DNA from: an uncultured Oscillospiraceae bacterium | Lineage (GTDB): Bacteria; Bacillota; Clostridia; Oscillospirales; Oscillospiraceae | Direction of reading: 5' to 3' | DNA length: 64,000 nt | NCBI GenBank assembly: GCA_947581795.1 | Contig: CANPVS010000013.1 | Span: 64-64,063, forward strand | Shown: piece by piece, positions 35,492 to 50,011 of the stretch | How the letters are laid out: every line of letters starts with the position of its first letter | Position numbering within the stretch: position 1 is the stretch's first letter | Notes under the pieces: model-generated | What the model saw: the letters and a program-made list of their open reading frames with translations, nothing else | Databases searched by the model: none | What the model was told of the DNA's origin: nothing | Made by a program: the position numbers and the translations under genes

Positions 35492-35500
35492 TGGTACGAC
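35490..35500. repeat. left att junction: TC crossover core plus 9-bp terminal inverted repeat TGGTACGAC
   Basis: Reverse complement of the right terminus GTCGTACCA. The core TC is shared with the right junction. Confidence 0.8.
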
Positions 35501-35520
35501 CATGTAAGTACAACAAATCG

Positions 35521-37074
35521 CTAAAAATTCCAATGGATTTCGATTGGAACATCCCTTGTGCCGGGGATTCGTTTGCCAATGGTCACATAGTCGATCAGTG
35601 TGTCCACAATCTCACGGGTAAGGTGTTCTAGGTTGGTGTACTGTTCTATCAACTCACGGCGGTTGTCGCCAGCGGCGATACGTTCTTCTATCTCTGACAA
35701 CTGCTTCTCACCATCAGCAACAACGTGTTCCAGCCTGTCGCGCTCCGTAATAAAGTCCTGGGACATTTCCCTGTAATCGCTCTCGGAGATCAGCCCCTTG
35801 ACTTTATCCAGATAAAGTTCCCGGATACCCTTGGAATACTCCGCTATCTTTTTCTGATAGGTGGCTATGTCTGACTTTAGACTAGATTTTTTCTCCTGAA
35901 GGCTGCCGCAAAACTCAATGTTTCGCTCCAACTCGTCCTTGTCAAGATACTCCGCTGACAGCCTATTCAACTCCGCCAGTACCATCTGTTCCAGTTTGTC
36001 AACGGCGATGAACGCCCCCTCGCAGGCATCTCTTGACACATGGCGGGTGCAGCATTGCAGATAGTGGCGGCCTCGGCTTTTGGACGAGCGCATGACATAG
36101 CCGCAATTAGCACAACGGGCTTTTCGGGCGAATAGACCTAGTTCCCCGCTGTCAAAGGGTTTGGCACGCTGGTCGATCAACGCTTGGACTCTATCCCATA
36201 GGTCGCGGTCAATGATAGGCTCATGGGTGCCTTTCACGATAATCCATTGATCTTTTGGCCTTGGCCTGCAAATCTTGGTCTTATAGGACACACTGGCGTA
36301 TTTGCCCTGTACCATATTACCAATATAGATTTCATTTGACAGCATATCCGCGATGGCGAAGTATTTCCAGAGAGTACTGTTCTTCGTGGCTGGCTGCATA
36401 TAGCGCAGACCGTGCAGGCGCTTGTACTCCGTGGGATTCGGAATGCCTCGGTCGTTGAGCATCCGTGCGATGGCGGTCTTGCCATAGCCCTGGGCAAAGA
36501 GAGTGAATACCTCCCGGACAACGGCGGCGGCTTCCTCGTCGATGATAAGATGGCCTTTCTGTTCAGGGTCTTTCAAATAGCCATAGAGAGCAAAGGCCCC
36601 AATGTGAAAGCCGTTTTCCCGGCGGCTGGTCAGTACGCTGCGGATATTCTCAGACATATCCTCCAAATACCACTCGTTCACCAGCCCATTGATTTGGCGG
36701 GATTTTTTGTTGCCCTTGTTGGCGGTATCGGCGTTGTCCACGATGCTGATAAAGCGGATGCCCCAGAGCGGGAAGAGACCGTGTATGTACTTCTCCACCA
36801 ACTCCAGCTCGCGGGTGAAGCGGGATTGAGTCTTACAGAGAACAATGTCAAATTTCCGCTGCTCCGCGTCCTGCAGGAGCCGATTGAACTCCGGCCGCCG
36901 TCGGTCTGACCCCGTGTAGTCGTCGTCACTGTAGATATTGAAAAGCTCCCACCCCTGTTCCATTACATATTGCAGCAGCATGGCTTTCTGATTCTGAATG
37001 CTGTTGCTGTCGTCGGTCGCGTGCTGCTTGTTTCGGTCTTCTTCGCTCAATCTGCAATAGATTGCTACCTTCAT
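35521..37074 (-). CDS. large serine recombinase (resolvase domain + recombinase/zinc-ribbon + DUF4368-like coiled-coil; TndX/TnpX-like)
   Basis: MKVAIYCRLSEED catalytic Ser region, SRFTRE motif and Zn ribbon CANCGY..C..H. GAAAGGAG RBS upstream. The ORF-track start at 37155 is rejected. Confidence 0.9.
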   Translation of the reverse strand: MKVAIYCRLSEEDRNKQHATDDSNSIQNQKAMLLQYVMEQGWELFNIYSDDDYTGSDRRRPEFNRLLQDAEQRKFDIVLCKTQSRFTRELELVEKYIHGLFPLWGIRFISIVDNADTANKGNKKSRQINGLVNEWYLEDMSENIRSVLTSRRENGFHIGAFALYGYLKDPEQKGHLIIDEEAAAVVREVFTLFAQGYGKTAIARMLNDRGIPNPTEYKRLHGLRYMQPATKNSTLWKYFAIADMLSNEIYIGNMVQGKYASVSYKTKICRPRPKDQWIIVKGTHEPIIDRDLWDRVQALIDQRAKPFDSGELGLFARKARCANCGYVMRSSKSRGRHYLQCCTRHVSRDACEGAFIAVDKLEQMVLAELNRLSAEYLDKDELERNIEFCGSLQEKKSSLKSDIATYQKKIAEYSKGIRELYLDKVKGLISESDYREMSQDFITERDRLEHVVADGEKQLSEIEERIAAGDNRRELIEQYTNLEHLTREIVDTLIDYVTIGKRIPGTRDVPIEIHWNF

Positions 37075-37098
37075 AGTCCATACTCCTTTCGGAGATAG

Positions 37099-37146
37099 GA
37101 CAAGCCGTTTCCGGCAGGTAGTATACCACGCCGGAAACGGCTTGTC
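37099..37146. repeat. 17-bp perfect inverted repeat (stem-loop) just upstream of the recombinase RBS
   Basis: GACAAGCCGTTTCCGGC, 14-nt loop, GCCGGAAACGGCTTGTC. Confidence 0.85.
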
Positions 37147-37160
37147 TATTTCCAATGTAA

Positions 37161-37346
37161 TTATAATGACTTGGCCTGTTTACCTCTTTCTATGCGGTTG
37201 ATCAAATCAATCCACCGCCTTGTGTACTCCTCCTTGGATGGCGAACTACCCCGGAATATGCTCGTGCACAGCGGCTGTGGCTGTTTATCAACAGCACTAG
37301 GATGATGTCGTGTCATCAATATCACCAGACCTATCTTATGCCACAT
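37161..37346 (-). CDS. hypothetical small protein (doubtful; possible directionality-factor position)
   Basis: 61-aa ORF with a weak RBS and no recognisable motif. Confidence 0.25.
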   Translation of the reverse strand: MWHKIGLVILMTRHHPSAVDKQPQPLCTSIFRGSSPSKEEYTRRWIDLINRIERGKQAKSL

Positions 37347-37373
37347 GAATGAGAGGTAGCACCCTAGTTGGCG

Positions 37374-37976
37374 CTACCTCTTGTTGTCCTTCTGCAGCTG
37401 CTCGCGCAGCCGCCGCATTCGCTCCACCTCGGCGGCGTCGGGCGCGGTCGTGACCGTCTGCTCCGGGGCTGGTGACGGGGTGCCACGCTCGCGGAGCGCC
37501 CATGTCTGCACGGTTGCCTTCCAGTCATCTATCGGCTGACCATTCAGCTTCCAGCCTCTCGCTTGGTAGTAGGAATGAAACAGGGCCGCATTGACCCGCA
37601 ACCCATTAGCCTCACAAAACTCCTCAACCTCTACGAGAGAGGGTGGGACCCCTGATTTTTCCTCTCGCTCTTTATCATTATACTTTATTTTATTTTCTTT
37701 TATTTTTCTTTTTCCTTTTCCTTTTCCTTTTCCGCGGTCAGCATTTTGGTCAAAAGCGATTCGTTTGGTATTTGTGTCCTCCAATTTCGCTGTGTAATAA
37801 TCGACAACAGAGATCATTCGCCTTAGATAGAATTTAGCGTTGCCCACGACATCGCTGACCTCGCCAGTCATTGCGTAGCGTTGCCCGGCGCGGATGAGGG
37901 AGCCATACTCCTCATCCGAAAGGGCGTCCATCTCGTCAACAAAAGAATCCAGGAGCACGATGTAATACCTTTCCAT
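37374..37976 (-). CDS. phage/plasmid-type DUF6291-like protein with Lys/Gly-rich linker
   Basis: N-terminus is YIVLLDSFVDEMDALSDEEYGSLIRA. C-terminus has FHSYYQARGWKLNGQPIDDWKATVQTW. GGGAGG RBS. Confidence 0.6.
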   Translation of the reverse strand: MERYYIVLLDSFVDEMDALSDEEYGSLIRAGQRYAMTGEVSDVVGNAKFYLRRMISVVDYYTAKLEDTNTKRIAFDQNADRGKGKGKGKRKIKENKIKYNDKEREEKSGVPPSLVEVEEFCEANGLRVNAALFHSYYQARGWKLNGQPIDDWKATVQTWALRERGTPSPAPEQTVTTAPDAAEVERMRRLREQLQKDNKR

Positions 37977-38095
37977 TTTGGACCTCCCAAAAAGTAAAGT
38001 GTAGGGGTCTTGCGTCCCCTCAACTATCTACCATGATTTTTTATGACAAAGTGGGGTGCCGCTACAAATTGTTTACACTTTGTTAACATTTGGAT

Positions 38096-38128
38096 ATAAA
38101 AAGACGGAGGGACTCTAGCCCCTCCGTC
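38096..38128 (-). terminator. rho-independent terminator after the sigma-like gene
   Basis: GACGGAGGG / CCCTCCGTC stem, followed on the minus strand by TTTTTATATCC. Confidence 0.7.
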
Positions 38129-38161
38129 TCGTGACGTACGCGCCCGCTCACGTCAACAGGG

Positions 38162-38629
38162 TTACCTTAGCGTGTCAGCAATGCGTTTGACAATCTCCCA
38201 TGCCCAGCGCACACGTTCGTAGCTCGCGCCAGTCATCTCTGCGATCTCAGTGGTGTCGAATCCAGCCCCGCGCATGAGCAACACATTCCGTTGGAAGTCG
38301 GTCAGTTGCTCGACGATGCTTTGGAGCGTAATACGTTGCAGCGCGATCTCCTCCGCGCTGGCTCCGTACTCATCACGGCTGTGCACGACCACATCGAGCA
38401 GTTCTGGGGTTGCGGACCGATCGAGGGGTACGTAACATTTGCATATGTGACAATCACCGATGCAGCGCTGCCACACCGCACACTCGCACTGCCCTGTGGT
38501 GCGCATAAGGCGATACAGCTTGTGGCTACCGCCCTCATACGCACGCAGCACTTGCAGAGTTACAGGCACGCGGATTTGCATAATCCTCCCATCAACGTTG
38601 GTCTCGACAAGAACATAATGATCTGCCAT
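38162..38629 (-). CDS. sigma-70 region-4-like HTH protein with Cys-rich N-terminal part
   Basis: C-terminus LTDFQRNVLLMRGAGFDTTEIAEMTGASYERVRWAW resembles sigma region 4. N-terminal part has CECAVWQRCIGDCHICKC. Confidence 0.6.
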   Translation of the reverse strand: MADHYVLVETNVDGRIMQIRVPVTLQVLRAYEGGSHKLYRLMRTTGQCECAVWQRCIGDCHICKCYVPLDRSATPELLDVVVHSRDEYGASAEEIALQRITLQSIVEQLTDFQRNVLLMRGAGFDTTEIAEMTGASYERVRWAWEIVKRIADTLR

Positions 38630-38740
38630 CGCAAATCCTGCGCAACACCCCGGAGGGTAGCATGACAATGGCAATAATAGACCTCGGGCGCAGGGACTAC
38701 CCACCACTGTCTATCCGGTAGTCCTGCGCCCTTTCTTTTG

Positions 38741-38785
38741 AAATAAAAAGGCGCCAGCAAAGATTAAATAATCTTCACTGGCGCC
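38741..38785 (-). terminator. intrinsic terminator/attenuator inside the leader upstream of the sigma-like gene
   Basis: GGCGCCAG..AAGATT-aaat-AATCTT..CTGGCGCC, followed on the minus strand by TTTTTATTTC. Confidence 0.6.
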
Positions 38786-38818
38786 ATTCCCTCACAAAAC
38801 ATGGAGGGAAATATGCTA

Positions 38819-38858
38819 CCCCGGCATAGCGTGTCCGTGGGGACACGCCATGCCGGGG
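38819..38858. repeat. long two-helix hairpin in the intergenic leader
   Basis: CCCCGGCAT-a-GCGTGTCC-gtgg-GGACACGC-c-ATGCCGGGG. Confidence 0.8.
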
Positions 38859-39075
38859 CGCATACTCGTGCGCTATTTGTCTGTAATTAGCATACACTAA
38901 CCTACGCTGGGCCTCTCGGCCCATACGATCTTGTAGTAACAGGCCGCTCTGGGCGGTCAACTTCCTTAGTATGTGTATTATGACTCGAAAAAGCTCTGAA
39001 GTCAACCTAATTTTATATAAATTTTTAAGAAAATTTGAAGTGCGCTTTCAATCGCGTTGGTTGCGCACTTGGTAC

Positions 39076-39105
39076 TTGACTGCCGAGGTCATCTCATGTT
39101 ATAAT
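39076..39105 (+). promoter_or_regulatory. sigma-A-type promoter of the methyltransferase/helicase operon
   Basis: TTGACT, 18-nt spacer, TATAAT. Confidence 0.55.
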
Positions 39106-39129
39106 GTTGAAAATTATATAATATTCAAC
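39106..39129. promoter_or_regulatory. 24-bp near-perfect palindrome (operator candidate) abutting the -10 box
   Basis: GTTGAAAATTATATAATATTCAAC, self-complementary at 22 of 24 positions. Confidence 0.5.
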
Positions 39130-39148
39130 ATATTAAGGGGTGATCAAG

Positions 39149-39793
39149 GTGACACAGATCAAGAGCAAAGAGCGGGTGCAACGGCATGGCGAGGTATTCA
39201 CGGCACAGCACGAGGTAACCGCTATGCTAGATTTGGTGCGGAAAGAGGCCAAGAGGATAGACAGCACCTTTTTGGAGCCTGCCTGCGGCAACGGTGCCTT
39301 TCTTGCTGAAATCCTCCGGCGCAAGCTGAACACGGTGTTTCGCATGGCTGGCATGAACGATGCGGACTGTGAGTATTGGGCGACTAGGGCCTTCTCTACC
39401 ATCTACGGCATAGACATCATGGCGGACAATATCGCAGAGGCCCGTGAACGCCTGTTCAATGACTTCTTTGCCCGGTTTCTCAACCGATACAAGCACCAGC
39501 CCACGCACATCTGCATGGACAGCATCCGCTTCATATTGAGCCAGAATATCCAGCAGGCCGATTCCCTGACGTGCAAGACGGGTGGGGGAACAGACCTCAT
39601 AATGACCTCATGGGTCTTTGACGAGAACGACGGTCTGACCATCGGTCTGTTCCGCTATGCCGATATGGTCCGCTCCGGGTGCAGCTGCAAGCCTCTCCGG
39701 GTCTTGCCGAAAATCCCGTATATGATGCTCCCGGCTATCTTTCGGAGTGATGAATGCTGGACATGGCAGACTAGTCATGGTAGAATAATATAG
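39149..39793 (+). CDS. DNA N6-adenine-methyltransferase-like protein lacking the NPPY catalytic motif and TRD (paralog A)
   Basis: HGEVFTA (motif X-like), LEPACGNGAFL (motif I), IYGIDI (motif II), QQADSL (motif III); DLIMTSWVF sits where FDxIxGNPPY is expected. GTG start after AAGGGG (alternative GTG at 39140). Confidence 0.7.
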   Translation: MTQIKSKERVQRHGEVFTAQHEVTAMLDLVRKEAKRIDSTFLEPACGNGAFLAEILRRKLNTVFRMAGMNDADCEYWATRAFSTIYGIDIMADNIAEARERLFNDFFARFLNRYKHQPTHICMDSIRFILSQNIQQADSLTCKTGGGTDLIMTSWVFDENDGLTIGLFRYADMVRSGCSCKPLRVLPKIPYMMLPAIFRSDECWTWQTSHGRII

Positions 39794-39828
39794 ATTATTG
39801 AGCAATATTCCATGCGGGGTGAGTACGT

Positions 39829-40491
39829 TTGGAGCAGCAGATCAAGTCAAAGCAGCGGGTGGCCGATCACGGCGAGGTGTTCACAGCCGAACGAGAAGTG
39901 AACGCTATGTTGGACATGGTTAAACAGGAAACGGAGCGAATCGACTCCCGCTTCCTGGAACCCGCCTGTGGTGAGGGAGCTTTCCTGGCCGAAGTGCTGC
40001 GACGGAAGCTGGCTGTCGTGAAGCAAAAGTACGGACGAAACCCATCAGACTATGAACTCTACGCTTTGATTGCCGTGACGAGCATTTACGGCGTGGATAT
40101 AATGGAGGACAACACCGAGAACTGCCGCAAGCGGCTATTCAAGATATGGAATAAAGAATACACCGCCGTTATGAAGAAAGAGGCGAACGACCGCTGCCGT
40201 GAGGTCGTAAAGTTTATCTTCAAGAAGAACATCCTTTGCGGCGATGCCCTAAAAATGGAGCAGCAGGACGGAACCCCGATCCTATTCGCAGAGTGGAGCC
40301 AAGTATCCGGCAGCCTTATCAAGAGAAGGGACTTTGAGCTGAACGAACTTCTGAAAGGCCATGAACGGCAGATGGACATGGATATGCTCCTCGGCGGCTG
40401 GGAGTACGACGAGGAAATAGACGCATATATCCCGGCACCTATAAAGGAATACCCACCGACTGATTATAGGAGGTTGGATGATTATGAATGA
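39829..40491 (+). CDS. DNA N6-adenine-methyltransferase-like protein lacking the NPPY catalytic motif and TRD (paralog B)
   Basis: HGEVFTA, LEPACGEGAFL, IYGVDI and ILCGDAL, then PILFAEWSQV with no NPPY. TTG start. The N-terminal approx. 60 aa are clearly paralogous to A. Confidence 0.7.
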   Translation: MEQQIKSKQRVADHGEVFTAEREVNAMLDMVKQETERIDSRFLEPACGEGAFLAEVLRRKLAVVKQKYGRNPSDYELYALIAVTSIYGVDIMEDNTENCRKRLFKIWNKEYTAVMKKEANDRCREVVKFIFKKNILCGDALKMEQQDGTPILFAEWSQVSGSLIKRRDFELNELLKGHERQMDMDMLLGGWEYDEEIDAYIPAPIKEYPPTDYRRLDDYE

Positions 40492-42103
40492 TGATTTTTT
40501 CGATGCTGTTTATAACCCGGATGTTCTGTCCTGCATCGCAAACTTGAGCAGCGACGAGGTATTCACGCCGCCCGGTATTGCAAATGATGTTCTGGATATG
40601 CTGCCCCAGGAGCTTTTCCAAAGCCGGGACACCACCTTCCTTGACCCCGGCTCCAAGAGCGGTATCTTTTTGCGGGAGATCGCAAAGCGGCTCCTCAGAG
40701 CGCAGATTCCAGGCTATGAACGGATCGCCCGAGAAATACGCCAGAAACAGCGTGAAGGGGGCACACTGGACCCGGACGAGGAATCCTTTTTGGAAGTCCT
40801 ACAGGAGAACATAGACCACATCTTTCATAACCAGCTTTTCGGTATTGCTGTTACTGAACTTACCAGCCTTCTTTCCAGGCGGAGCGTCTACTGTTCCAAA
40901 TTCCCAAACAGTGAGTTCTCCATTTCTCATTTCGACTCCGCGGAGGGAAATATCCGTTTCCGGCGCACCCAGCACATTTGGGATAAGAACGGAAGTTGTA
41001 AGTATTGTGGCGCATCCAAAGAATTATATGACCGAGGGGATAAGCTGGAAACCCATGCGTATGAGTTCATCCACACGAAAAAGCCGGAGGATATTTTCTC
41101 GATGAAGTTTGATGTTATTATCAGTAATCCGCCATACGCCCAGGACACAGCAGGGGCTGGCCGTCAAGCCAAACCCCTTTATAATTTGTTTGTTGAACAA
41201 GCGAAAAAACTTCATCCACGGTATCTGTGTATGATTATTCCGTCTCGCTGGTTTTCTGGCGGCATGGGTCTGGATGATTTCCGTAAATCCATGATTTCGG
41301 ATGCTCATATCACAAAGATGGTTGACTTCACCAATTCAAAAGATTGTTTTCCAGGGGTCAGCGTAAGCGGCGGCGTGTCATATTTTCTGTGGGAACGGGA
41401 CAAAACATCTGAATGTGAGTTTACTAATATAACGAATGGTGAAACAAATGTGATGGTACGCCCGTTAAATGAGTTCTCGACCCTCGTTAGATACAACAGC
41501 GCTGTTTCAATCATCCACAAGGTCAACGCTCTGACAAAGGAGAAACTTGAAACTATTATTAGTTCTCTTATGCCCTATGGGCTGTCCACCAGCTATCGCG
41601 GCAGAGCACTAAAAACAGAGAGGAGCCAACTCACGTTGTATGCCAGTAATGGTGTGACATATATAAATCGGAACGAGATCACAAAGGGACTTGAAACAGT
41701 CGATAAATATAAAATCCTTGTGAGTAAGACAAGCGCGGAGCACGCGGGAGAACCTGGGAACGATGGTAAATTCAAGGTTATCCCTTCGTCCATGAAGGTC
41801 ATTGGCCCTGGGGATGTGTGTACCCATTCATATTTCATTATTGGAAATTGGGACAGCGAATCTCCCGCTAAAAACGCCCTGTCTTACATGAGGACAAAGT
41901 TTGTCAGATTCTTGATGCTACTTTGTATCAGCGGCTTTGGTCTATCCAAAATTGTCTTTCCATTTGTACCAATGCAAGACTTCTCTAAGCCTTGGACAGA
42001 CAAAGAATTGTATGCGAAGTATGGCCTGACGGATAAAGAAATCGAGTTCATCGAATCTATGATTAAGCCTATGGACGGCGCAGATGAAGATGTTGAGCCG
42101 TAA
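40478..42103 (+). CDS. Eco57I-family (gamma-class) N6-adenine DNA methyltransferase with C-terminal putative target-recognition region
   Basis: DEVFTPP (motif X), FLDPGSKSGIFL (motif I) and VIISNPPYAQ (motif IV). 541 aa. Overlaps paralog B by 14 nt. Confidence 0.85.
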   Translation: MIMNDDFFDAVYNPDVLSCIANLSSDEVFTPPGIANDVLDMLPQELFQSRDTTFLDPGSKSGIFLREIAKRLLRAQIPGYERIAREIRQKQREGGTLDPDEESFLEVLQENIDHIFHNQLFGIAVTELTSLLSRRSVYCSKFPNSEFSISHFDSAEGNIRFRRTQHIWDKNGSCKYCGASKELYDRGDKLETHAYEFIHTKKPEDIFSMKFDVIISNPPYAQDTAGAGRQAKPLYNLFVEQAKKLHPRYLCMIIPSRWFSGGMGLDDFRKSMISDAHITKMVDFTNSKDCFPGVSVSGGVSYFLWERDKTSECEFTNITNGETNVMVRPLNEFSTLVRYNSAVSIIHKVNALTKEKLETIISSLMPYGLSTSYRGRALKTERSQLTLYASNGVTYINRNEITKGLETVDKYKILVSKTSAEHAGEPGNDGKFKVIPSSMKVIGPGDVCTHSYFIIGNWDSESPAKNALSYMRTKFVRFLMLLCISGFGLSKIVFPFVPMQDFSKPWTDKELYAKYGLTDKEIEFIESMIKPMDGADEDVEP

Positions 42104-42650
42104 CGAGGAATACTACGACCGTTACACCGAACTTCAGGACCTGGTTCTGCGGGCCTATATTGACGTGCTGTCCCTTGAAGAAATAACCTCTGCTGTAGGG
42201 ACAAACCAAGACAGCCATATTGAAATGCTGGATGTCAGCATCAACGCCTTGGGCCATATCTGTGAACTGCTGAAGGCAGATATGGCGCTTACCATCTGGA
42301 AGATTTACTATGAATCGTATGGCTGGGCGAATAACATTGGAAATCTGAACCGTGATTTCTTCGCGCCTCGCGGTGAGCGCCGAGAAACAAAACTCCCAAA
42401 GGACCTTAAAACATACAAGGCACCCATTCAAACCCTACGAAAAGAATACCTTGCTCATAACAGCGCCGAGAAAAGCGGAACGAGCATATCCGTGCAGGCG
42501 TTAAGGGCTGTTCTGGATGCCATAAAGGATTTGCTGAACGGATTGTGCGATCCCACGCTGGACAGCCGCGTGGAACCTGTCACAGAGTCCGCTTTGTACA
42601 CGCTGGATATAAACGTAAAACTCGGCCTTGGTACAGTCATCAGAAAGTGA
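42084..42650 (+). CDS. hypothetical helical protein, HEPN-like (AbiU2-type) candidate
   Basis: 188 aa. RKEYLAH fits the HEPN Rx4-6H motif near the expected position. Overlaps the MTase stop by 20 nt. Confidence 0.45.
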   Translation: MKMLSRNEEYYDRYTELQDLVLRAYIDVLSLEEITSAVGTNQDSHIEMLDVSINALGHICELLKADMALTIWKIYYESYGWANNIGNLNRDFFAPRGERRETKLPKDLKTYKAPIQTLRKEYLAHNSAEKSGTSISVQALRAVLDAIKDLLNGLCDPTLDSRVEPVTESALYTLDINVKLGLGTVIRK

Positions 42651-42686
42651 TGTGCTTTTCTGCCAGGCAAAATGGAGGGTCATCCT

Positions 42687-45674
42687 ATGCCCAACACTGA
42701 TTTCTTCCCGTCGCGTCCAAAAACTTTTCCCCAAGTGTATGCCTATACCATTCCCGGTCTGAAGACGCATGAGGGATATATCAAAGTAGGCTACACGGAG
42801 CGTGAGAACGCGAGTGAGCGTATTCGAGAACAGCTGCATACGGCTGGCATAAAGCACGACCTTCTGTTCATCGAATCTGCTATGCGGACAGATGGCAGCA
42901 GCTTTACCGACTATGATGTTCACAGAGTGCTTCGCAGAAAGGGGTATCCCCAGCTGAACGAGGGGGAGGACAGAAACGAATGGTTCAAGTGTAGTGCGGA
43001 CGCTGTTCGCGCTGCGATCATAGCCGTTCGGGATAGGACCGACAACGCAGAGGAGCGGTCTCAGTCTTTTCCGATGCGCCCGGAACAGGCCCGCGCCGTG
43101 CAGGTGACAACTGACTATTTTCGGAGGGTCAGCCAGGACGAGCCGGGTAGGCGGCCCAAATTCCTTTGGAACGCGAAGATGCGCTTTGGCAAGACTTTTG
43201 CCTCGTATGAGCTGGCAAAGGCCATGGGACTGAAACGGATATTGGTGCTGACATTCAAGCCTGCGGTAGAATCCGCCTGGCGGGATGATCTTATGACCCA
43301 TGTGGATTTTGAAGGCTGGCAGTTCGTATCCAATAAGGACGCGCACAACAACAATCTGAACATCGACGAGCAGTATGCCAAGACGGACAAAAGCAGACCC
43401 ATCGTGGTGTTTGGTTCCTTTCAGGACCTACTCGGAACGAATGAAAATGGCGGTATCAAGGCCAAGAACGAGTTCATCCATACGAACAACTGGGATTTAG
43501 TCATCTTCGATGAATACCACTTCGGCGCATGGCGTGAAAACGCTGCCAAGCTGTTTGAACGCCCGGACGAAGAAAAAGACGTGGACTTCGATGCCGAGGA
43601 ATACAGCAAAGAAGAAGCAGGAAACGCCTTCAACGAGACGTTCATTGAGATCACAACGAAATACTATCTGTTTCTCTCGGGCACGCCGTTCCGTGCCCTC
43701 AACTCCGGCGAGTTCATAGAGGAGCAGATATACAACTGGACGTACTCTGACGAGCAGCGGGCAAAGGAACAATGGCCGTACCTTGCTGATTTCCCCGAAT
43801 ACCATGCCCAACCCAGCGACACAAACCCCTATGCCGCCCTTCCTCGCATGGTGATGCTCACATACCGTATCCCCGATGACATCCGCAGAGTAGCGCAGCA
43901 GGGAGAGTTTAACGAGTTCGACCTAAATGAGTTCTTCGCGGCTAAACCTGCAGAGAAGGGCAAGCCAGAAACATCCCGATTCGTGCATGAGAATGAAGTC
44001 CAGAAATGGCTTGATCTTATCAGAGGAGCGCATCTCCCTTCATCTATAGACGAGTTGAAGCTGGACGCTGGAAAACGCCCGCCCATGCCGTACTCTGACA
44101 GCAACTTGCGCGGGATATTGAGCCATACGCTGTGGTTCCTGCCGAATGTGGCAAGCTGCTTTGCCATGTTTAATCTGCTGATGCAGCGTCAAAACGGCTT
44201 CTATAATAACTATTACACTATCAAGGTGTGCGCTGGGTCAAAGGCTGGCATAGGCTTGGATGCGCTCGCTCCCATACGACAGGCGATGGGGAACCCGCTG
44301 GAAACACAGACCATCACCCTGTCCTGCGGCAAGCTGACGACGGGCGTAACGGTAAAGCCCTGGTCTGGCGTGTTCATGCTGCGCAACCTGAAAAGCCCGG
44401 AAACTTACTTCCAGACAGCTTTCCGTGTCCAGTCCCCATGGACTATACAGGACAATGAGGGCAAGACGCAAATCATCAAGAGGGAGTGCTATGTTTTTGA
44501 CTTTGCTCTGGACAGAGCACTCCGACAAATCTCCGATTATGCCCGCAGTCTGGATGTAAAGGGAGATAAAAGCCCGGAAGAAAAGGTGGCCGAGTTCATT
44601 CAATTTCTGCCCGTTTTGGCGTACAACGGCAGTTCTATGCAGCAAGTGGACGCACAGGCCATTTTGGACATCGCTATGTCCGGCACCTCTGCTACACTTC
44701 TTGCGCGGCGGTGGCAATCCGCTCTGCTGGTGAATGTCGATAATACGACGCTGCAAAGACTTCTTGCCAGCCAGGAGGCCATGGATGCTCTCAGCAGGAT
44801 CGAAGATTTCAGAAATTTGAATCAGGACATCGAGATCATCATCAACAGGTCTGAAAGCGTAAAGAAGGCAAAAACAAAGGGAGAAAAGATGACTCCCCAA
44901 GAGAAGGAGAAGGTAAAGGAGGATGAAAACGAGTTCAAGAGCCGCCGGAGAGACATCCAGAAAAAGCTGATTAAGTTTGCCAGCCGTATCCCGCTGTTTA
45001 TGTATCTGACCGACTACCGTGAGCGGACGCTAAAAGACGTAATCACGCAAATTGAGCCGGGGCTGTTTATGAAGGTCACGGGGCTGGATACCAAAGACTT
45101 TGAGCTTCTGTGCTCCCTGGGGGTGTTCAACGCTGGGCTGATGACCGATTCTATCTTCAAATTCAGAAGATACGAGGATGCGTCCCTGTCCTATGCTGGC
45201 ATCGACAAGAACGCGGATAAGGCTGTCGGCGGCTGGGACACTGTTCTCCGCAGAGAGGAATATGAGAGGCTGTATTATACGCAGCAGTCCTCTATGTCTG
45301 CAGGAGTGGTGGAGGAATACGCGGAAGATGCAGAACAGACCCCAGCCGAGACTGTAAAGCCCATAGAGGTGAAAAAGCCAAAAGAAACAGCACCCAAAGC
45401 CACTGTGCCAAAAGTTGCAGTTGCGCCGAGCCGTACACAAGCCCCCACTCCTGCACCTGCAAAAGTGCCGTTAAAACCGTTTTTCAGCAAAGCACAGGCT
45501 TACACGCCACCGAATGTCAAAGTTGGCGATGATGTGAACCACAAGAAGTTTGGAAAAGGTGCTGTTGTTGCTTTAGACCCGGTAGCAAAATACATCCGCG
45601 TTCAGTTTTCAGAGGGCGAGAAGTCGTTTATATTCCCGGATGCGTTCAAAAACGGTTTTTTGAGCATTAAATGA
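42687..45674 (+). CDS. GIY-YIG/T5orf172-like nuclease domain fused to SF2 (type III Res-like) helicase with long C-terminal extension
   Basis: N-terminus is VYAYTIPG..GYIKVGYTER...NEWF. Helicase motifs are MRFGKTF (I), FDEYH (II) and QTAFRVQSP (VI). C-terminus is HKKFGKGAVV (UvrD/PcrA-tail-like). GGAGGG RBS (alternative ATG at 42672). Confidence 0.8.
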   Translation: MPNTDFFPSRPKTFPQVYAYTIPGLKTHEGYIKVGYTERENASERIREQLHTAGIKHDLLFIESAMRTDGSSFTDYDVHRVLRRKGYPQLNEGEDRNEWFKCSADAVRAAIIAVRDRTDNAEERSQSFPMRPEQARAVQVTTDYFRRVSQDEPGRRPKFLWNAKMRFGKTFASYELAKAMGLKRILVLTFKPAVESAWRDDLMTHVDFEGWQFVSNKDAHNNNLNIDEQYAKTDKSRPIVVFGSFQDLLGTNENGGIKAKNEFIHTNNWDLVIFDEYHFGAWRENAAKLFERPDEEKDVDFDAEEYSKEEAGNAFNETFIEITTKYYLFLSGTPFRALNSGEFIEEQIYNWTYSDEQRAKEQWPYLADFPEYHAQPSDTNPYAALPRMVMLTYRIPDDIRRVAQQGEFNEFDLNEFFAAKPAEKGKPETSRFVHENEVQKWLDLIRGAHLPSSIDELKLDAGKRPPMPYSDSNLRGILSHTLWFLPNVASCFAMFNLLMQRQNGFYNNYYTIKVCAGSKAGIGLDALAPIRQAMGNPLETQTITLSCGKLTTGVTVKPWSGVFMLRNLKSPETYFQTAFRVQSPWTIQDNEGKTQIIKRECYVFDFALDRALRQISDYARSLDVKGDKSPEEKVAEFIQFLPVLAYNGSSMQQVDAQAILDIAMSGTSATLLARRWQSALLVNVDNTTLQRLLASQEAMDALSRIEDFRNLNQDIEIIINRSESVKKAKTKGEKMTPQEKEKVKEDENEFKSRRRDIQKKLIKFASRIPLFMYLTDYRERTLKDVITQIEPGLFMKVTGLDTKDFELLCSLGVFNAGLMTDSIFKFRRYEDASLSYAGIDKNADKAVGGWDTVLRREEYERLYYTQQSSMSAGVVEEYAEDAEQTPAETVKPIEVKKPKETAPKATVPKVAVAPSRTQAPTPAPAKVPLKPFFSKAQAYTPPNVKVGDDVNHKKFGKGAVVALDPVAKYIRVQFSEGEKSFIFPDAFKNGFLSIK

Positions 45675-45686
45675 GAGGAGATCAGA

Positions 45687-45869
45687 ATGGCAAGACAGAA
45701 AAAGGATGGGCATTATATTAACTGCTATCTTGATCGGAACCTCTATAACCGACTCTGCTATTATGCGGAGGAGAAAGGACAGACAAAGACCCTCGCCATT
45801 GAGAGAATCCTAAAGGAGCACTTCGATAAAAGCGGCGTTCCAGCAGAGGTTGATACTCCAAAGGATTGA
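45687..45869 (+). CDS. ribbon-helix-helix (Arc/CopG-like) protein
   Basis: 60 aa with beta-strand YINCYL followed by two helices (NLYNRLCYYAEEKGQTKTLAIERILKEHF). GAGGAG RBS. Confidence 0.6.
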   Translation: MARQKKDGHYINCYLDRNLYNRLCYYAEEKGQTKTLAIERILKEHFDKSGVPAEVDTPKD

Positions 45870-45881
45870 GACAGCAAAAAA

Positions 45882-45917
45882 GGACAGAATCTCCACTCTG
45901 GAGGTGCTGTCCTTTTA
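45882..45917 (+). terminator. rho-independent terminator ending the operon
   Basis: GGACAG..CTCCA-ctc-TGGAG..CTGTCC followed by TTTT. Confidence 0.7.
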
Positions 45918-45933
45918 CACAAACAGGCGGCAG

Positions 45934-45953
45934 TTTGTGTGTGCACTTTCAAA
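45934..45953 (+). repeat. 20-bp direct repeat, copy 1
   Basis: TTTGTGTGTGCACTTTCAAA. Matches 19 of 20 positions with 46640..46659. Confidence 0.85.
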
Positions 45954-45959
45954 AACAGA

Positions 45960-45980
45960 GGGGCGGCTTGATACCGCCCC
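45960..45980 (-). terminator. terminator hairpin after the DUF2442 gene
   Basis: GGGGCGG-cttgata-CCGCCCC, followed on the minus strand by TCTGTTTTTG. Confidence 0.65.
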
Positions 45981-45985
45981 TGCAT

Positions 45986-46288
45986 TTACGCCGTTTCCAG
46001 CACACCCAGCGGGTCATCCACGATGGGGGCTTTCTCAAAAATCGTGAAGCTGTCCAAGTCCACGCAGGCCGTCGTATCCCGGTTCCCAGCAATATCCCAG
46101 GCCACAGCATCATTCAGCACCGTTAGGCGTTCCCGGAAAAATGCGGGGTCGGCCAGCGGCGCGAATACGCCGCCCTTGGCGATATAAGGTTTTACATCCA
46201 CCAGGCGGACGGCCCCGTCGCTGCAGTAAGCATAAACAGTGAAGTCGTCGCCGGGGATGACCTGCACAACAGCGGGAAAAAGTTCCAT
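45986..46288 (-). CDS. DUF2442 domain protein
   Basis: 100 aa with FTVYAYCSDGAVRLVDVKPY and VAWDIAGN motifs typical of DUF2442. Confidence 0.8.
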   Translation of the reverse strand: MELFPAVVQVIPGDDFTVYAYCSDGAVRLVDVKPYIAKGGVFAPLADPAFFRERLTVLNDAVAWDIAGNRDTTACVDLDSFTIFEKAPIVDDPLGVLETA

Positions 46289-46301
46289 GGTATGATCTCC
46301 T

Positions 46302-46562
46302 TTACATAAGCGGCTCGATCTGCTTCAGCGGCTGCTGATCTTTGGCAAGTTCCCAGTTTTGCATCAGCTCATCCCGGTGCATCTCGCCCCAGGCAAGGAC
46401 AAATTTCAACTGCCGGAACGGGAGCGCCCCTCTGATAACGTAACCGCGCTGAATGTCTATGAGGGCCTTATACCCGGCATATTCCGCGTGGAAGTGCGGT
46501 GGGTTGTGGTCGTCATAGAACATTTTTATCCGTATGCCGCCAAACAGAGAAATCTCCGGCAT
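46302..46562 (-). CDS. DUF4160 domain protein
   Basis: MPEISLFGGIRIKMFYDDHNPPHFHAEY signature. Confidence 0.85.
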   Translation of the reverse strand: MPEISLFGGIRIKMFYDDHNPPHFHAEYAGYKALIDIQRGYVIRGALPFRQLKFVLAWGEMHRDELMQNWELAKDQQPLKQIEPLM

Positions 46563-46639
46563 GGTACGGCCTCCTTTTTGCAGCGACTTTTCATTAAAAC
46601 TAGTGTATCATATTTTGCTCCAAATCACAACACCCGACA

Positions 46640-46659
46640 TTTGCGTGTGCACTTTCAAA
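46640..46659 (+). repeat. 20-bp direct repeat, copy 2
   Basis: TTTGCGTGTGCACTTTCAAA. Confidence 0.85.
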
Positions 46660-46660
46660 T

Positions 46661-46694
46661 GATGTGAGGGACGGCTCAGGCCGTCCCTCACATC
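46661..46694. terminator. 15-bp perfect hairpin after the SprT-like gene
   Basis: GATGTGAGGGACGGC-tcag-GCCGTCCCTCACATC. Overlaps the stop codon. Confidence 0.65.
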
Positions 46695-47337
46695 ATACCT
46701 CTATCATCTGGCGCATACAGTCGCCGCACAGGATGTTGACCTTTTTCGTGGCCCTCACGCTCTGACCGCAGACGGGACAGGCCAGTTTGCGGGTGCTGCT
46801 GGGGCGTTTGCCGCCCAGGAGCGGTTCCCCGGCCTGGGCGGTGCCGCCTGCGCCAAGCCGTATCATGGGCGGTAGAGTGGAGCGGCCTATTTTTATCTCA
46901 GACCAGCCTTTTGAAAGTGCATACTCAACGAGATTGTCGCCGGGCTTGGTGTTCCAGCCGTATTGACCCTGACGAAAGCAGGTAAGGCCGTGGGCCTCGG
47001 CAATCGCTTTGAACAGCCCATTGTGGTACTTGCCGCCTCGGCTCACCTCTTTGATGCCGTGCTCCCGGCAATAGATATGCACCATCTCATGGAGCATGGT
47101 GTCGATGGTTTCCTCTATGGGGTAGGAAAGCACCTCGGCGGCGATGTTCAGCTCATAGGTGCTGTCCTCTTGCCTGCGCCAGACCTTGGCGACGGAACTG
47201 TGGCCGTAGGTGCCGGGTTTGCTCTGCACAGTGATAATGGGCGTGGGCAGCTCGCTGGCGAAGAAATCGGTGTTGAGGCAGTTAAAAATGTGCTCCAGCT
47301 GACTGACGGCGCGGGACATCTTGGTGGTGGGCTTCAT
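46693..47337 (-). CDS. SprT-like zinc metalloprotease domain protein with C-terminal zinc ribbon
   Basis: HEMVH motif and CPVCG...CGDC. GGGAGG RBS before the ATG at 47337. Confidence 0.75.
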   Translation of the reverse strand: MKPTTKMSRAVSQLEHIFNCLNTDFFASELPTPIITVQSKPGTYGHSSVAKVWRRQEDSTYELNIAAEVLSYPIEETIDTMLHEMVHIYCREHGIKEVSRGGKYHNGLFKAIAEAHGLTCFRQGQYGWNTKPGDNLVEYALSKGWSEIKIGRSTLPPMIRLGAGGTAQAGEPLLGGKRPSSTRKLACPVCGQSVRATKKVNILCGDCMRQMIEV

Positions 47338-47455
47338 AGTGGTGTACCTCCCATAATGTAATATGTGTGATAGCAAAGCGGCTCGCTCGCTTTGCTTGCT
47401 TACAGGAGGCACACCCGCCCGCACGGTCAAGACTGGCCCACAGGGCCACTCGCGC

Positions 47456-47499
47456 AAAAAATTTTCCTCCCAGCCTCACGGCCAGGAGGAAAAATTTTT
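47456..47499. terminator. A/T-flanked hairpin after the coupling-protein gene
   Basis: AAAAAATTTTCCTCC, loop, GGAGGAAAAATTTTT. Confidence 0.6.
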
Positions 47500-47540
47500 G
47501 CTGGTCTTTACCGTGTCCCAGGGGCGCGGTGTGCTATGTG

Positions 47541-49145
47541 TCACACCTCCACGAATGGTATATGTACCAGGGATACACGCTCCGGGTGCTGCTTATCGTA
47601 ATAGATCGCCGTCAAGGGACGCAGTTCCTTGATGGTGTCGGGAGAGACCTTGTACTCATGTACCAGCTTCTTGGTGCCCGCCGCGTCCGGGTCGAGGAGC
47701 CTGCCAGTGGATTTGCGGGTAGTCTCCACCGTGAGCTTTGTGCCGATGATGTTCGCCATCGTCTCCGCGTCGGCAGCGGCGTTGAGCTGCAGAACAGCGT
47801 ACTGTCCGCAATTTTCCATGACCCTTTCTGCGAACGATTCTGATACAGCGGACAGGTCCGCGATGGATTGGGTGGCGACGATGATCTGATAGCCGTAGCT
47901 CCGGGCTTGGGCGAACAGGGGCATAAGCTGCTCCGTGGCGTAGGCTCCCAGCTCGTCCAGGATGACACGCTTCCGGGTGCTCATGTTGCGCTCTTGGGAG
48001 ATAACATGGCGGACGTCCGCGATGAACAGCTTGCCCACCGCCTGGGTGTAGTCCGTGTACCTGAAGCTATCCAAATCCACGAAGAACACAGCACCGTCTT
48101 TCTGCGCTGTTGCTGCGCTCACATAGTCCCCGGTGCCGTCCCCGAATAAGTCGCTGCCATCGCCATACAGCAGGTTTTGGTAGCGGCTCCGGGACAGAGC
48201 CGCTTCCTCTGCCACGTCTGACAGGGCAAGATACCCACGCGCCTGTTCCGCTGTCAATACGCCGTCCTTCCTCAGCTGGCCTATCAGAGAAGAAAACTCT
48301 TTCCATGCGTAGAAGTCACACACCGAGGCAAGAGACAGCGGTATATCCGCTGCCTGAAGCACCTCGCACAGCGCCTTTAGCCAGGTCGCCGTGCAAGCCT
48401 TGTAATGGGGTTCGGTAAACTCACTGATGCTCACCAGCGCGTCCGACAGCTCTGTAGGCGTCATTTCCGCCAGGGGGTTGTACTTCCGGCGGTCATGCTC
48501 GCGGGGATTGAGCGATACGACCAGCATCTTGCGTCCATACTTGGCGGCCAAGGCTTTGGTCGCGTTGAGCAGGCTCCGGCTGTCATCTGTGCCGTTCTTG
48601 CCGCTGAGAACATACAGAGGCTCGCCGCGTCGGATGGAATCCTCTATGTGATGCAGCAGGAGCGTTGTCTTGCCGCTGCCCGTAGTCCCGGCGACAAACG
48701 CATGGGTTCGGTTGCCCGTGTCCACTTGCTGGGTGTGGGTGAACTGCCGCAAGGATTTCTTTCGCTCATGCCGCAGCAGTGCGTCATCTGCACTCTCGCC
48801 GCCCACCCAGGCGATAGCGATGACGGTAGCGTCAACGAAGAGAAAACGAGTGGGCGCGGGATACACCAGCCATTTGTAGGCTGTTTCGGGGAAAGTACCC
48901 ATCCAAAAGCCACCTAGGCCATTACCAAGGACAAGCGATACCAAAATAACAGCGACCACGTCCGAAGCACCAATGAGCAGGAGCCATAACACGATTTGTC
49001 TCTTTGCTGCATCGCACTTCCAGCGCATATAGGCATAGATGACTATTAGTGCCAAAAAGTAGGCAGGGGAGAAAAATAGGGACGCGACAATGAAGTACGG
49101 AAGACACATCACAAGGCGCTGGCGGAAATCCAAAGTATTGTTCAT
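47541..49145 (-). CDS. type IV coupling protein (TraG/TraD/VirD4-like ATPase)
   Basis: N-terminal TM helices, Walker A GTTGSGKT and Walker B VILDELG. 534 aa. Confidence 0.8.
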   Translation of the reverse strand: MNNTLDFRQRLVMCLPYFIVASLFFSPAYFLALIVIYAYMRWKCDAAKRQIVLWLLLIGASDVVAVILVSLVLGNGLGGFWMGTFPETAYKWLVYPAPTRFLFVDATVIAIAWVGGESADDALLRHERKKSLRQFTHTQQVDTGNRTHAFVAGTTGSGKTTLLLHHIEDSIRRGEPLYVLSGKNGTDDSRSLLNATKALAAKYGRKMLVVSLNPREHDRRKYNPLAEMTPTELSDALVSISEFTEPHYKACTATWLKALCEVLQAADIPLSLASVCDFYAWKEFSSLIGQLRKDGVLTAEQARGYLALSDVAEEAALSRSRYQNLLYGDGSDLFGDGTGDYVSAATAQKDGAVFFVDLDSFRYTDYTQAVGKLFIADVRHVISQERNMSTRKRVILDELGAYATEQLMPLFAQARSYGYQIIVATQSIADLSAVSESFAERVMENCGQYAVLQLNAAADAETMANIIGTKLTVETTRKSTGRLLDPDAAGTKKLVHEYKVSPDTIKELRPLTAIYYDKQHPERVSLVHIPFVEV

Positions 49146-49888
49146 CTCTGCGCCCCCGTCCCTTTATAGCAACGATATTTCAAGAGACTATGGCTCTCTT
49201 TGGACTTCGCTTCTCGGAGTACCTCCCCGACATCTACACCTGCTGGCTCTATGTAGGTGTTGTGGTGTATGTTCGCCATCAGGATACGCTCGTCCATACA
49301 GGACAGCGGCATCGTGAGCAGATTAACACCTATCCGGCTTGCCACAGTTTGGATATTCTTGCCGATGCTGGGTGGCTTGTCGGGGACGAGCCACGTTTGC
49401 CCCTCAAAAATATCGTTTGAAACGATGTTCCGTTCCAGCACAGCGATGGGCTTGTGGTTCAACTCTACCTCAAAAGCCTTTCCACGCAGCACGATATCAG
49501 GACGGTGTGCCTTGCGGCTAAAATAAGGCATCATGTCCCGGTCAACGATCATGTCAAATATGCTGACCCGGTCGGTGATGCAGAGCCATGTACAGGCACG
49601 TCCCACCATCAGAGCATGGTAGGTCGTATAGCTTACTTCATAGGTCCTGCCAGTAGACTTTCCTATCTCTCTCATACCAGCTGCCGTCAAGAAGTAACAC
49701 TTTGCTCCCAGACAGTCACGTACCGTCTGTAGTAGACCCATCCGCACCAACTCCATCAATTTCTTCCGACAGAATGTCACATCCGTAAAACCCGCCAGCC
49801 ATGCCAGTTCCAATGCCTGGACTATCCGCAGCTTGTCGATGATCTCAAGCATCCGATATTCACGTTCACCAAGTTTTTTGATTACCAT
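49142..49888 (-). CDS. replication-relaxation (Replic_Relax) family protein
   Basis: 248 aa with an N-terminal winged-helix-like part (REYRMLEIIDKLRIVQALELAWLAG). Overlaps the coupling-protein start by 4 nt. Confidence 0.6.
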   Translation of the reverse strand: MVIKKLGEREYRMLEIIDKLRIVQALELAWLAGFTDVTFCRKKLMELVRMGLLQTVRDCLGAKCYFLTAAGMREIGKSTGRTYEVSYTTYHALMVGRACTWLCITDRVSIFDMIVDRDMMPYFSRKAHRPDIVLRGKAFEVELNHKPIAVLERNIVSNDIFEGQTWLVPDKPPSIGKNIQTVASRIGVNLLTMPLSCMDERILMANIHHNTYIEPAGVDVGEVLREAKSKESHSLLKYRCYKGTGAQR

Positions 49889-50011
49889 AGTTCATGAACC
49901 CTCCTTGTATTATCCAGACCGAACGCCGCGCAACGACGCGCGCGCAAAACCTCGATACCCGTTGCTGCCATTTCCCGGCCCGGTATGACCTGCTGTCATG
50001 CACCATGTTGT

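Follow-up and report, generated by a model that had tools for sequence, protein, structure and literature searches.

A widespread nuclease-motor and methyltransferase triad as the probable core of a restriction-modification-like module on an Oscillospiraceae genomic island

Described restriction systems and the six-gene locus

Several described classes of restriction-modification (R-M) system can be compared with a six-gene operon at positions 39076-45917 of the window analysed here, the whole 64,000-nucleotide stretch taken from contig CANPVS010000013.1 of an uncultured Oscillospiraceae bacterium. In Type ISP enzymes such as LlaGI and LlaBIII, a single polypeptide carries an N-terminal Mrr-like PD-(D/E)xK nuclease, a superfamily 2 (SF2) ATPase, a gamma-class N6-adenine methyltransferase (MTase) and a target-recognition domain (TRD). 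These enzymes translocate with ATP away from an asymmetric site and cleave the DNA when they collide head-on. Type III enzymes such as EcoP15I consist of two components, a beta-class MTase (Mod) with an internal TRD and an SF2 ATPase-nuclease (Res) with a C-terminal PD-(D/E)xK domain, and Type IIG enzymes unite restriction endonuclease (REase) and MTase in one ATP-independent chain. The YeeA(DnmA)-YeeB-YeeC trio comprises an MmeI-family MTase-TRD, an SF2 helicase and a T5orf172/GIY-YIG protein encoded in one conserved cluster, and was predicted to be a helicase-assisted R-M system with a GIY-YIG nuclease and single-strand modification (Morgan et al. 2009, PMC2731913). The DnmA-YeeB-YeeC genes reside on horizontally acquired islands, and Vibrio crassostreae homologs of the trio reportedly influence phage sensitivity (as cited in PMC9973331). 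T5orf172 domains have been described as nucleases in work on phage ICP1 and its PLE satellite (PMC8263062).

The six open reading frames (ORFs) of the locus, designated p1 to p6, all lie on the + strand where the original prediction had placed them, and the overlaps measured for p2/p3 (14 nt) and p3/p4 (20 nt) agree with the values it gave; the remaining gaps are 35, 21 and 12 nt. Our analysis indicates that the locus is probably an ATP-dependent R-M-like defence module, in which a three-gene core, p2-p3-p5, is accompanied by add-on genes. The core triad is a very widespread, uncharacterised R-M-like unit rather than a categorically new defence principle. The features of the locus are as follows (aa, amino acids).

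39076-39105, + strand: promoter-like site of the sigma-70 type upstream of p1 (TTGACT-18-TGnTATAAT; 11/12 match, extended -10)
39149-39793, + strand: p1, 214 aa from the gene-caller start (GTG at 39149), or 217 aa from a GTG start at 39140; NPPY-less half-methyltransferase-like protein
39829-40491, + strand: p2, 220 aa; NPPY-less half-methyltransferase-like protein
40478-42103, + strand: p3, 541 aa; Eco57I-family gamma-class N6-adenine MTase, with NPPY at 41126-41137 and a putative TRD at ~41435-41857
42084-42650, + strand: p4, 188 aa; putative AbiU2-like HEPN protein, with R119-x5-H125 at 42438-42458
42672-45674, + strand: p5, 1000 aa (995 aa from the Met6 start chosen by gene callers), with a T5orf172/GIY-YIG domain at 42735-43022, a DExH SF2 motor at ~43056-44681 and a Tudor-like C-terminal domain at 45504-45671
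45687-45869, + strand: p6, 60 aa; small protein resembling ribbon-helix-helix (RHH)/CopG regulators
45878-45916, + strand: intrinsic terminator hairpin, 17 bp with one internal mismatch position, followed by UUUU

The p2-p3-p5 triad and its fused relatives

A scan for p5 homologs in one genome per species yielded 78 loci from many phyla, and co-occurrence was counted at those 58 where the sequence upstream of the p5 homolog extended over 2.7 kb or more. A p2-like gene was present at all 58 loci and a p3-like gene, with gene order and strand preserved, at 57, and therefore the universal unit is the triad p2-p3-p5. A second p2-like copy was found at two of these loci and a p6-like gene at three. 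The triad loci span Fibrobacterota, Bacillota, Planctomycetota, Actinomycetota, Bacteroidota, Pseudomonadota (including Pelagibacteraceae), Spirochaetota and others, and the abundant triad is found in gut Clostridia and Fibrobacter as well as in streamlined lineages of fresh water and the sea, such as Nanopelagicaceae and Pelagibacteraceae. Other defence genes stand beside it in some genomes: AbiEi/AbiEii genes flank the same triad (28% identity) on a Legionella plasmid, and GmrSD adjoins it in one locus of a closer relative (L081). An apparent 1471-aa p3-p5 fusion in another locus (L032) was rejected since its reading crosses a stop codon. In a further locus (L093, 1-6011), three consecutive tyrosine-recombinase genes and a DUF6262 gene lie directly upstream of a truncated (335-aa) p3 homolog, and this recombinase-trio element has apparently taken the place of the p2-like gene together with the N-terminal portion of the MTase.

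The largest protein of the triad, p5, begins with a T5orf172/MUG113 domain of the GIY-YIG superfamily (Pfam T5orf172, residues 22-117, 1.7e-7), followed by a ResIII match (residues 133-291, 5.5e-6; 26.8 bits vs a cut-off of 22.5) with GKT at 173 and DEYH at 280. These matches bear out the prediction of a 1000-aa GIY-YIG/T5orf172 plus SF2 helicase protein, in which a GIY-YIG-type nuclease domain takes the place of the Mrr-type one. Residues Y23, G40, R50 and E103 of the nuclease domain, together with K174-T175, D280-E281-x-H283 and S336-G337-T338 of the motor, were invariant in 33 diverse homologs, and the family comprises at least 8000 clusters (90% identity) at E <= 1e-10. The AlphaFold2 (AF2) model of p5 was of low confidence (predicted local distance difference test, pLDDT, 61; predicted template modelling score, pTM, 0.36), and we drew on it solely to assign the motor to a fold class and to describe the small terminal domains. 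Most of the 50 Foldseek matches listed for this model were Swi2/Snf2-family ATPases (ISWI, Mot1, CHD, INO80, RapA and ZorD; best E 5e-11) and the remaining ones, RadD and Rad5 among them, were SF2 ATPases of other kinds. We tentatively suggest that the motor resembles Snf2-type double-stranded-DNA translocases. Beyond the motor, p5 contains a helical C-terminal region, a Pro/Ala/Lys-rich linker (~870-940) and a small beta-barrel (945-1000; pLDDT ~88) with a weak match to the Tudor domain of PcrA/UvrD (E 0.0039). The PcrA/UvrD Tudor domain binds RNA polymerase, and a link between the Tudor-like domain of p5 and transcription is conceivable. This Tudor-like end occurs only in long homologs (~920-1000 aa; Clostridia, Fibrobacter and Mollicutes); planctomycete, actinobacterial and proteobacterial homologs end near residue 865.

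The modification component is p3, a complete Eco57I-family N6-adenine MTase as had been predicted, which matches Pfam Eco57I at 2.3e-37 (129.2 bits vs a cut-off of 25.3) and carries NPPY at residues 217-220. Its motifs follow the gamma-class order X-I-IV with a C-terminal variable region after them, and MmeI_Mtase, MmeI_TRD and MmeI_C gave no matches in Pfam. The catalytic part of p3 is 50-78% identical to 60 homologs, residues 320-460 are merely 16-36% identical and the C-terminal tail is conserved again, a pattern that in sequence terms is that of a swappable TRD. Hypervariability of the putative TRD beside a conserved catalytic part is what diversifying sequence specificity would be expected to produce. 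The G+C content at third codon positions (GC3) of the TRD-coding part (41378-41917) is 0.49, vs 0.70 for p1, 0.66 for p2 and 0.62 for p5, as would fit a specificity region that was swapped or acquired on its own. p3 has a divergent N-terminal half, with DPGSKSGIF as motif I, a CxxC insert and no GDxL motif.

The third member, p2, and its neighbour p1 were predicted to be NPPY-less MTase-like paralogs, and indeed they are 48% identical over residues 4-156 and both retain motif X (GEVFT) and motif I (EPACGxGAF, which is EPACGNGAF in p1). Motif IV, (D/N/S)PP(Y/F/W), by which an active DNA MTase is recognised, is absent from p1, from p2 and from the consensus of the p2 family. In a set of 63 homologs, the motifs that p2 does have (X, I and II) reach at least 90% conservation. 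The family comprises at least 8000 clusters at 90% identity, and a profile search retrieved 833 clusters (50% identity) at E <= 1e-30. Structure prediction gave p2 (AF2, pLDDT 85) a Rossmann beta1-beta3 core with helical insertions and a short extra sheet, and this model superposes solely on the first ~100-145 residues of CamA, MmeI, BrxX/PglX and LlaBIII, with weak E values of ~0.01-0.6. Judged from the model, p2 is a half-methyltransferase and not a cryptic complete one; its MmeI_Mtase match is sub-threshold (23.1 bits vs a cut-off of 27).

Five full-length MTases of the Eco57I family (~490-530 aa) were present among the best 150 matches of the p2 profile. In one of them, P0269 (locus L096, 276-1778), a p2-type N-terminal half (61% identity to p2) is directly joined to a p3-type catalytic-TRD half; P0296, P0316, P0331 and P0359 are known as p2-profile matches with a full Eco57I domain. 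P0269, the one full-length MTase checked for context, has no motor-nuclease gene beside it, and a 59-aa gene after it was rejected as p6-like. These full-length MTases may have arisen by deletion, or may represent an ancestral form of the MTase. Since the N-terminal half of p3 is divergent, p2 might act in trans with the catalytic half of p3. It is possible, although doubtful at present, that p2 (here p1 and p2) is an obligate, non-catalytic third subunit of a widespread, uncharacterised class of ATP-dependent restriction enzymes built from a GIY-YIG/T5orf172 nuclease, a Snf2-like motor and an Eco57I-type MTase/TRD. As such a subunit, it might be an S-adenosylmethionine (SAM) sensor that licenses cutting, or a half-domain that pairs in trans with the catalytic half of the MTase. 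If this were true, the triad would represent a new R-M subtype with a control principle unseen in Types I, III and ISP.

Relatives of the triad also exist in fused form. A tblastn search against plasmids returned 81 records, many of them from Enterococcus, Lactococcus and lactobacilli, of which 45 are mobilisable or conjugative. Several matches lie inside genes annotated as Eco57I methylase-domain protein, and close inspection of one record showed one large protein with the p5-like region as its N-terminal portion. The protein of plasmid pRS5 (WP_012660355, 1417 aa) has the order T5orf172-ResIII-Eco57I followed by a TRD, and aligns with residues 1-710 of p5 (34% identity) and, through its residues 934-1416, with residues 6-530 of p3 (28%). 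Upstream of its gene lies one for a 306-aa companion, which matches the PADLOC model 'MTase_II' PDLC03390 at 1e-73 and is remotely homologous to p2 (hhalign E 2.8e-5, with EVFT, LExxCGE and S-YG aligned). This companion has a degenerate motif I (EITCGEAPY) and ~100 extra N-terminal residues. A p2-like gene thus precedes the fused form too, and therefore the half-MTase companion is kept in split and fused forms alike. On a Lactiplantibacillus plantarum plasmid (NZ_CP058734; L098, 1-5191), the large gene is split into a 1093-aa protein, comprising the motor and the N-terminal part of the MTase, and a 334-aa C-terminal part of the MTase. The companion in that locus is annotated 'restriction endonuclease' by PGAP, the same family being covered by the REBASE-derived PADLOC model 'MTase_II', and NCBIfam contained no model for the companion protein of lactic acid bacteria. 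No experimental characterisation of fused pRS5-type enzymes was found in the literature.

These relatives bear on how the locus should be classified. PADLOC contains a REBASE-derived model of 1359 positions, PDLC03626 'REase_MTase_IIG', to which p5 aligns in its first half (p5 129-670 to model positions 152-679, 4e-35) and p3 at its end (p3 209-532 to 1010-1359, 5e-36), p3 also matching MTase_II PDLC03375 at 4e-41. The fused pRS5 protein matches PDLC03626 at 1e-117. The original prediction that the operon fits no named defence system was therefore overstated. The 'Type IIG' label is itself unfitting because the enzyme has a helicase motor: Type IIG enzymes are ATP-independent and consist of one chain, whereas p5 and p3 are separate chains, and the DExH motor of p5 argues for ATP dependence. 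The absence of BREX and DISARM markers was predicted rightly. None of the six proteins matched PglZ, BrxC, DrmA, DrmB, or full-length MAD2 and its partners in PADLOC and NCBIfam. BREX, DISARM, MADS, Hma and the PADLOC candidate systems were rejected because their MTase-domain matches were sub-threshold only, with weak partial similarities such as PglX (3e-4) and MAD2 (24 bits vs a cut-off of 720).

Membership of Type ISP, Type IIG, Type III or the DnmA type fails in each case on at least one of the defining features tested. The locus was originally read as a Type ISP-like enzyme split into two polypeptides. In architecture this stands, as the nuclease, SF2 ATPase, gamma-class N6-adenine MTase and TRD are all present and the pRS5 protein is a fused homolog of p5 and p3; sequence homology to LlaGI/LlaBIII is lacking, with no match at E <= 1 when p5, p3, the pRS5 protein and a 33-sequence p5 profile were compared with PDB (including 4XQK). 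The p2 model superposes weakly on the MTase part of LlaBIII (rank 49), and the ATPase motifs that translocation of the Type ISP kind would call for are intact in p5. In contrast to the single Type ISP polypeptide, p3 and p5 are encoded by two genes that p4 separates, the nuclease belongs to the T5orf172/GIY-YIG instead of the Mrr-like type, and p2 has no counterpart, Type ISP enzymes being without an extra invariant half-MTase subunit. The pRS5-type enzymes share homologous nuclease, motor, MTase and TRD as well as the upstream p2-like gene, but have the motor N-terminal to the MTase in one chain, whereas here the MTase gene precedes the motor gene. Type III systems likewise consist of an MTase and an SF2 ATPase-nuclease, and p5 passes the ResIII cut-off; yet p3 is gamma-class with a C-terminal TRD rather than beta-class with an internal one, the nuclease of p5 is N-terminal and GIY-YIG-type, its C-terminus is helical and Tudor-like, and no Type III profile was matched in PADLOC. 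The YeeA(DnmA)-YeeB-YeeC cluster shares an MTase-TRD, an SF2 helicase and a T5orf172/GIY-YIG domain, but the latter two are separate proteins there and fused in p5, its MTase is of the MmeI and not the Eco57I family, and no half-MTase partner has been reported for it; YeeB and YeeC are set apart from p5 here by their descriptions. We found no paper describing the p2-p3-p5 triad. In databases its members are named inconsistently as 'DEAD/DEAH box helicase', 'GIY-YIG nuclease', 'hypothetical protein', 'restriction endonuclease' or 'MTase_II'. Characterisation of the triad would give the R-M classification a motor-driven branch based on GIY-YIG nucleases, and would explain one m6A (N6-methyladenine) motif family in methylomes as well as the role of an invariant dead half-methyltransferase.

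Proposed mechanism and mobile-element context

In the mechanism that we propose, p3 would read an asymmetric motif via its variable C-terminal TRD and methylate one adenine (m6A) on host and element DNA; with a single MTase, an asymmetric site and one-strand methylation would be expected. On unmethylated foreign DNA, the p3-bound site would recruit or activate p5, whose DExH Snf2-like motor would translocate on double-stranded DNA using ATP and whose N-terminal T5orf172/GIY-YIG domain would nick or cut the DNA. Such cutting would be akin to that of Type ISP and Type III enzymes and of the predicted YeeA(DnmA)-YeeB-YeeC systems. p2 (and p1), non-catalytic N-terminal MTase halves that keep the SAM motifs, would be obligate partners, most likely as structural or regulatory (SAM-sensing or bridging) subunits of the MTase-motor complex. 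In addition, p6 would probably regulate the operon, and p4 would be an independent abortive-infection gene that provides a second line of defence from a cargo slot.

The strongest alternative, which we still consider unlikely, is that the locus is a relic or an epigenetic module, in which p3 is an orphan-like regulatory m6A MTase and the helicase-nuclease is inactive or serves another role in DNA metabolism. This has a precedent in Bacillus subtilis, where DnmA-YeeB-YeeC gave no protection against three phages and was regarded by the authors as a relic with an orphan MTase (PMC9973331), and P0269, a chimeric MTase that stands alone without a neighbouring motor gene, shows that such derivatives arise. 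However, the nuclease and ATPase motifs of p5 are invariant across phyla, the triad order is kept at 57 of the 58 loci, the TRD is hypervariable, and the module occurs on mobile elements and plasmids beside other defence genes. Invariant motifs, triad order, TRD variability and defence neighbours indicate purifying selection on the triad as a whole and diversifying selection on its specificity.

Several points weigh against an R-M-like defence module with p2 as a working subunit. The B. subtilis result is one of them, and the literature contained no experiment for any member of the triad family. The searches with p5, p3, the fused pRS5 protein (phmmer) and the p5 profile against all PDB chains gave E > 0.05 and nothing relevant, the proteins having no sequence relative with a solved structure, and the subfamily assignment of the motor is tentative because the p5 model is of low confidence. 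p2 could be the evolutionary remnant of a second MTase, because full-length MTases with a p2-type N-terminal half exist and P0269 stands without a motor gene. The biochemistry and the formation of a complex are what we infer, and the role of p2 and p1 is entirely so. Regarding expression, the original prediction had one promoter and one terminator bracketing the six genes. The terminator is strong (-23.1 kcal/mol, z = -5.14, with none of 200 shuffles folding equally well) and a strong promoter-like site lies upstream of p1; but this site, at 39076-39105, is the best of 15 in 38600-46400 (7.9 +/- 2.6 expected), weaker ones also lying inside the operon, and a single promoter for the whole set is, from the sequence, no more than plausible.

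The operon lies inside a 14.7-kb island (~35500-50230) with a GC content of 0.52, compared with 0.60-0.63 for the host, and the island encodes a large serine recombinase (35521-37155) and a TraG/VirD4-type protein, in agreement with the prediction that the operon is cargo of a mobile element. Other island genes are SprT-like and DUF4160/DUF2442. The island interrupts cotJC, a Mn-catalase-like spore-coat gene located downstream of cotJA/cotJB, leaving pieces at 35294-35500 (-) and 50240-50661 (-): the 5' part stops at ...VIADLAEDM, and the 3' part restarts with ...EQKARVTYDN... beside the serine recombinase. It thus looks like an intervening element of the skin/SPbeta type, the excision of which would be needed to restore cotJC. 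No long direct repeats that could be att (attachment) sites were found at the island, as expected for a serine recombinase, and no near-identical DNA was matched in plasmid and phage collections.

R-M systems can behave selfishly (see references in PMC12707154), and the module might mainly serve its mobile element, either through addiction (post-segregational killing) or through establishment or anti-restriction during transfer of the island. In favour of this reading, the module is cargo of an integrative element that encodes both a serine recombinase and a coupling protein of the TraG/VirD4 type, and plasmid relatives are frequent and often, as counted above, mobilisable or conjugative. Most of the 78 loci, however, are located on long contigs of chromosomes, among them the complete chromosomes of free-living, streamlined lineages (Nanopelagicaceae, Pelagibacteraceae and Acidimicrobiaceae), and since addiction and defence are compatible for R-M systems, this reading would differ in emphasis and not in mechanism. 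We regard it as improbable as the main function.

Within the island, a DUF4160/DUF2442 gene pair (45986-46562, -) is convergent on the operon terminator, and a 20-nt repeat, TTTGYGTGTGCACTTTCAAA, flanks this pair at 45934-45953 and 46640-46659.

Clade-specific genes and the interval between p3 and p5

At loci with p5 64-85% identical to that of the Oscillospiraceae locus, referred to as closer relatives, the gene content is as follows (percentages are identities to the proteins described here).

L087-L091 (abundant P0034 clade): p1 (67%), p2 (57%), p3 (52%), an unrelated 393-aa insert, p5 (69%) and p6 (58%)
L094: p1 (68%), p2, p3, p5 and p6 (67%); no insert
L092: a different 236-aa insert; p6 (82%)
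L081: p2-p3-p5 only; empty slot
L095: p2-p3-p5 only, with an 85-aa zinc-ribbon insert

p1 and p6 occur at merely two to three of the 58 species-level loci, and the possibility that they are chance neighbours was rejected: because both are conserved in these closer relatives, they are, by sequence comparison, real clade-specific additions. p1, the best PADLOC match of which is 'MTase_II' PDLC03390, has orthologs with a conserved C-terminus in L087-L091 and L094 (67-68% identity). A decaying pseudogene or frameshifted copy of p2 was rejected as an explanation of p1, as no similarity was found in alternative frames and the orthologs retain the distinctive C-terminus. Orthologs of p6 lie directly 3' of p5 in L092, L094 and L087-L091, at the identities listed, as well as in L033/L034 (43-45%), and upstream of p2 in L011 (62%). 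The prediction of an RHH protein is in keeping with the domain matches of p6, which are of the RHH type but weak (RepB-RCR_reg 0.013, RelB-like 0.0049); p6 is a probable small RHH transcriptional regulator.

p4 is of a different nature. It had been described as a 188-aa HEPN-like protein, and its own match to HEPN_AbiU2 (E = 0.0076, 16.2 bits) falls below the Pfam cut-off of 26.8; five of the six members of its family do match HEPN_AbiU2 (best 3.7e-7), and R119 and H125 are invariant, their R-x5-H spacing falling within the R-x4-6-H pattern of the HEPN superfamily. The family is very rare, with five clusters among 5.8 billion proteins vs at least 8000 for p5. Neither p4 nor p6 matched a PADLOC or candidate-system profile. 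A p4-like gene was found at none of the 58 well-flanked loci, a homolog in the same slot was present in L026 only (28% identity), and relatives with 40% identity (P0123 and P0125) lie in unrelated contexts with no MTase/helicase partner; p4 was rejected as an integral component of the system on these grounds. We consider p4 to be best read, from sequence, as an independent, putative AbiU2-type HEPN gene encoding a putative ribonuclease (RNase) lodged between p3 and p5.

Other genes occupy the inter-gene slots elsewhere, encoding YhcG/DUF1016 nucleases (L058 and L071), a DUF2971 protein (L015), YafQ/RelB (L052), HigB/HigA (L067), an HATPase_c_4 plus winged-helix protein (L011), a weakly RES-like protein of 393 aa (L087) or zinc-ribbon proteins. 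Judged by these contents, the p3-p5 interval is a variable cargo slot. Comparable cargo has been described inside Type I R-M operons (PMC9881135), where it lies between core genes, and characterisation of the present module would document well how a slot of this kind gathers Abi and toxin-antitoxin genes in an R-M operon that is not of Type I.

A single, integrated and novel defence system made up of all six genes, for example with a HEPN RNase effector triggered by a helicase-MTase sensor, was suggested by their tight packing with overlaps on either side of p3, by the strong promoter-like site and terminator that bracket the set, by the p4 homolog in the same slot of L026 and by the joint conservation of p1, p2, p3, p5 and p6 in close relatives, but it is hardly credible in view of the absence of p4 from all well-flanked loci, the rarity of its family and the lack of MTase/helicase partners for its relatives, and with the slot of the closest relatives holding the 393-aa weakly RES-like, the 236-aa or the 85-aa zinc-ribbon protein, or being empty (L094 and L081). 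The original prediction, which placed the extra genes outside the known R-M types and named a lack of co-occurrence with the MTase/helicase pair as evidence against a six-gene system, thus holds unevenly: the lack of co-occurrence is seen for p4, whereas p2 is an invariant part of the core and p1 and p6 accompany the pair in closer relatives.

In two other contexts (L083, 5749-8609; L084, 463-2612), a p4-like HEPN gene directly follows a gene for a DUF4379 (zinc-ribbon) protein of 475-677 aa, and one of these contexts is a mobilisable element with a relaxase. The p4-like HEPN and DUF4379 genes may form a two-gene module of their own.

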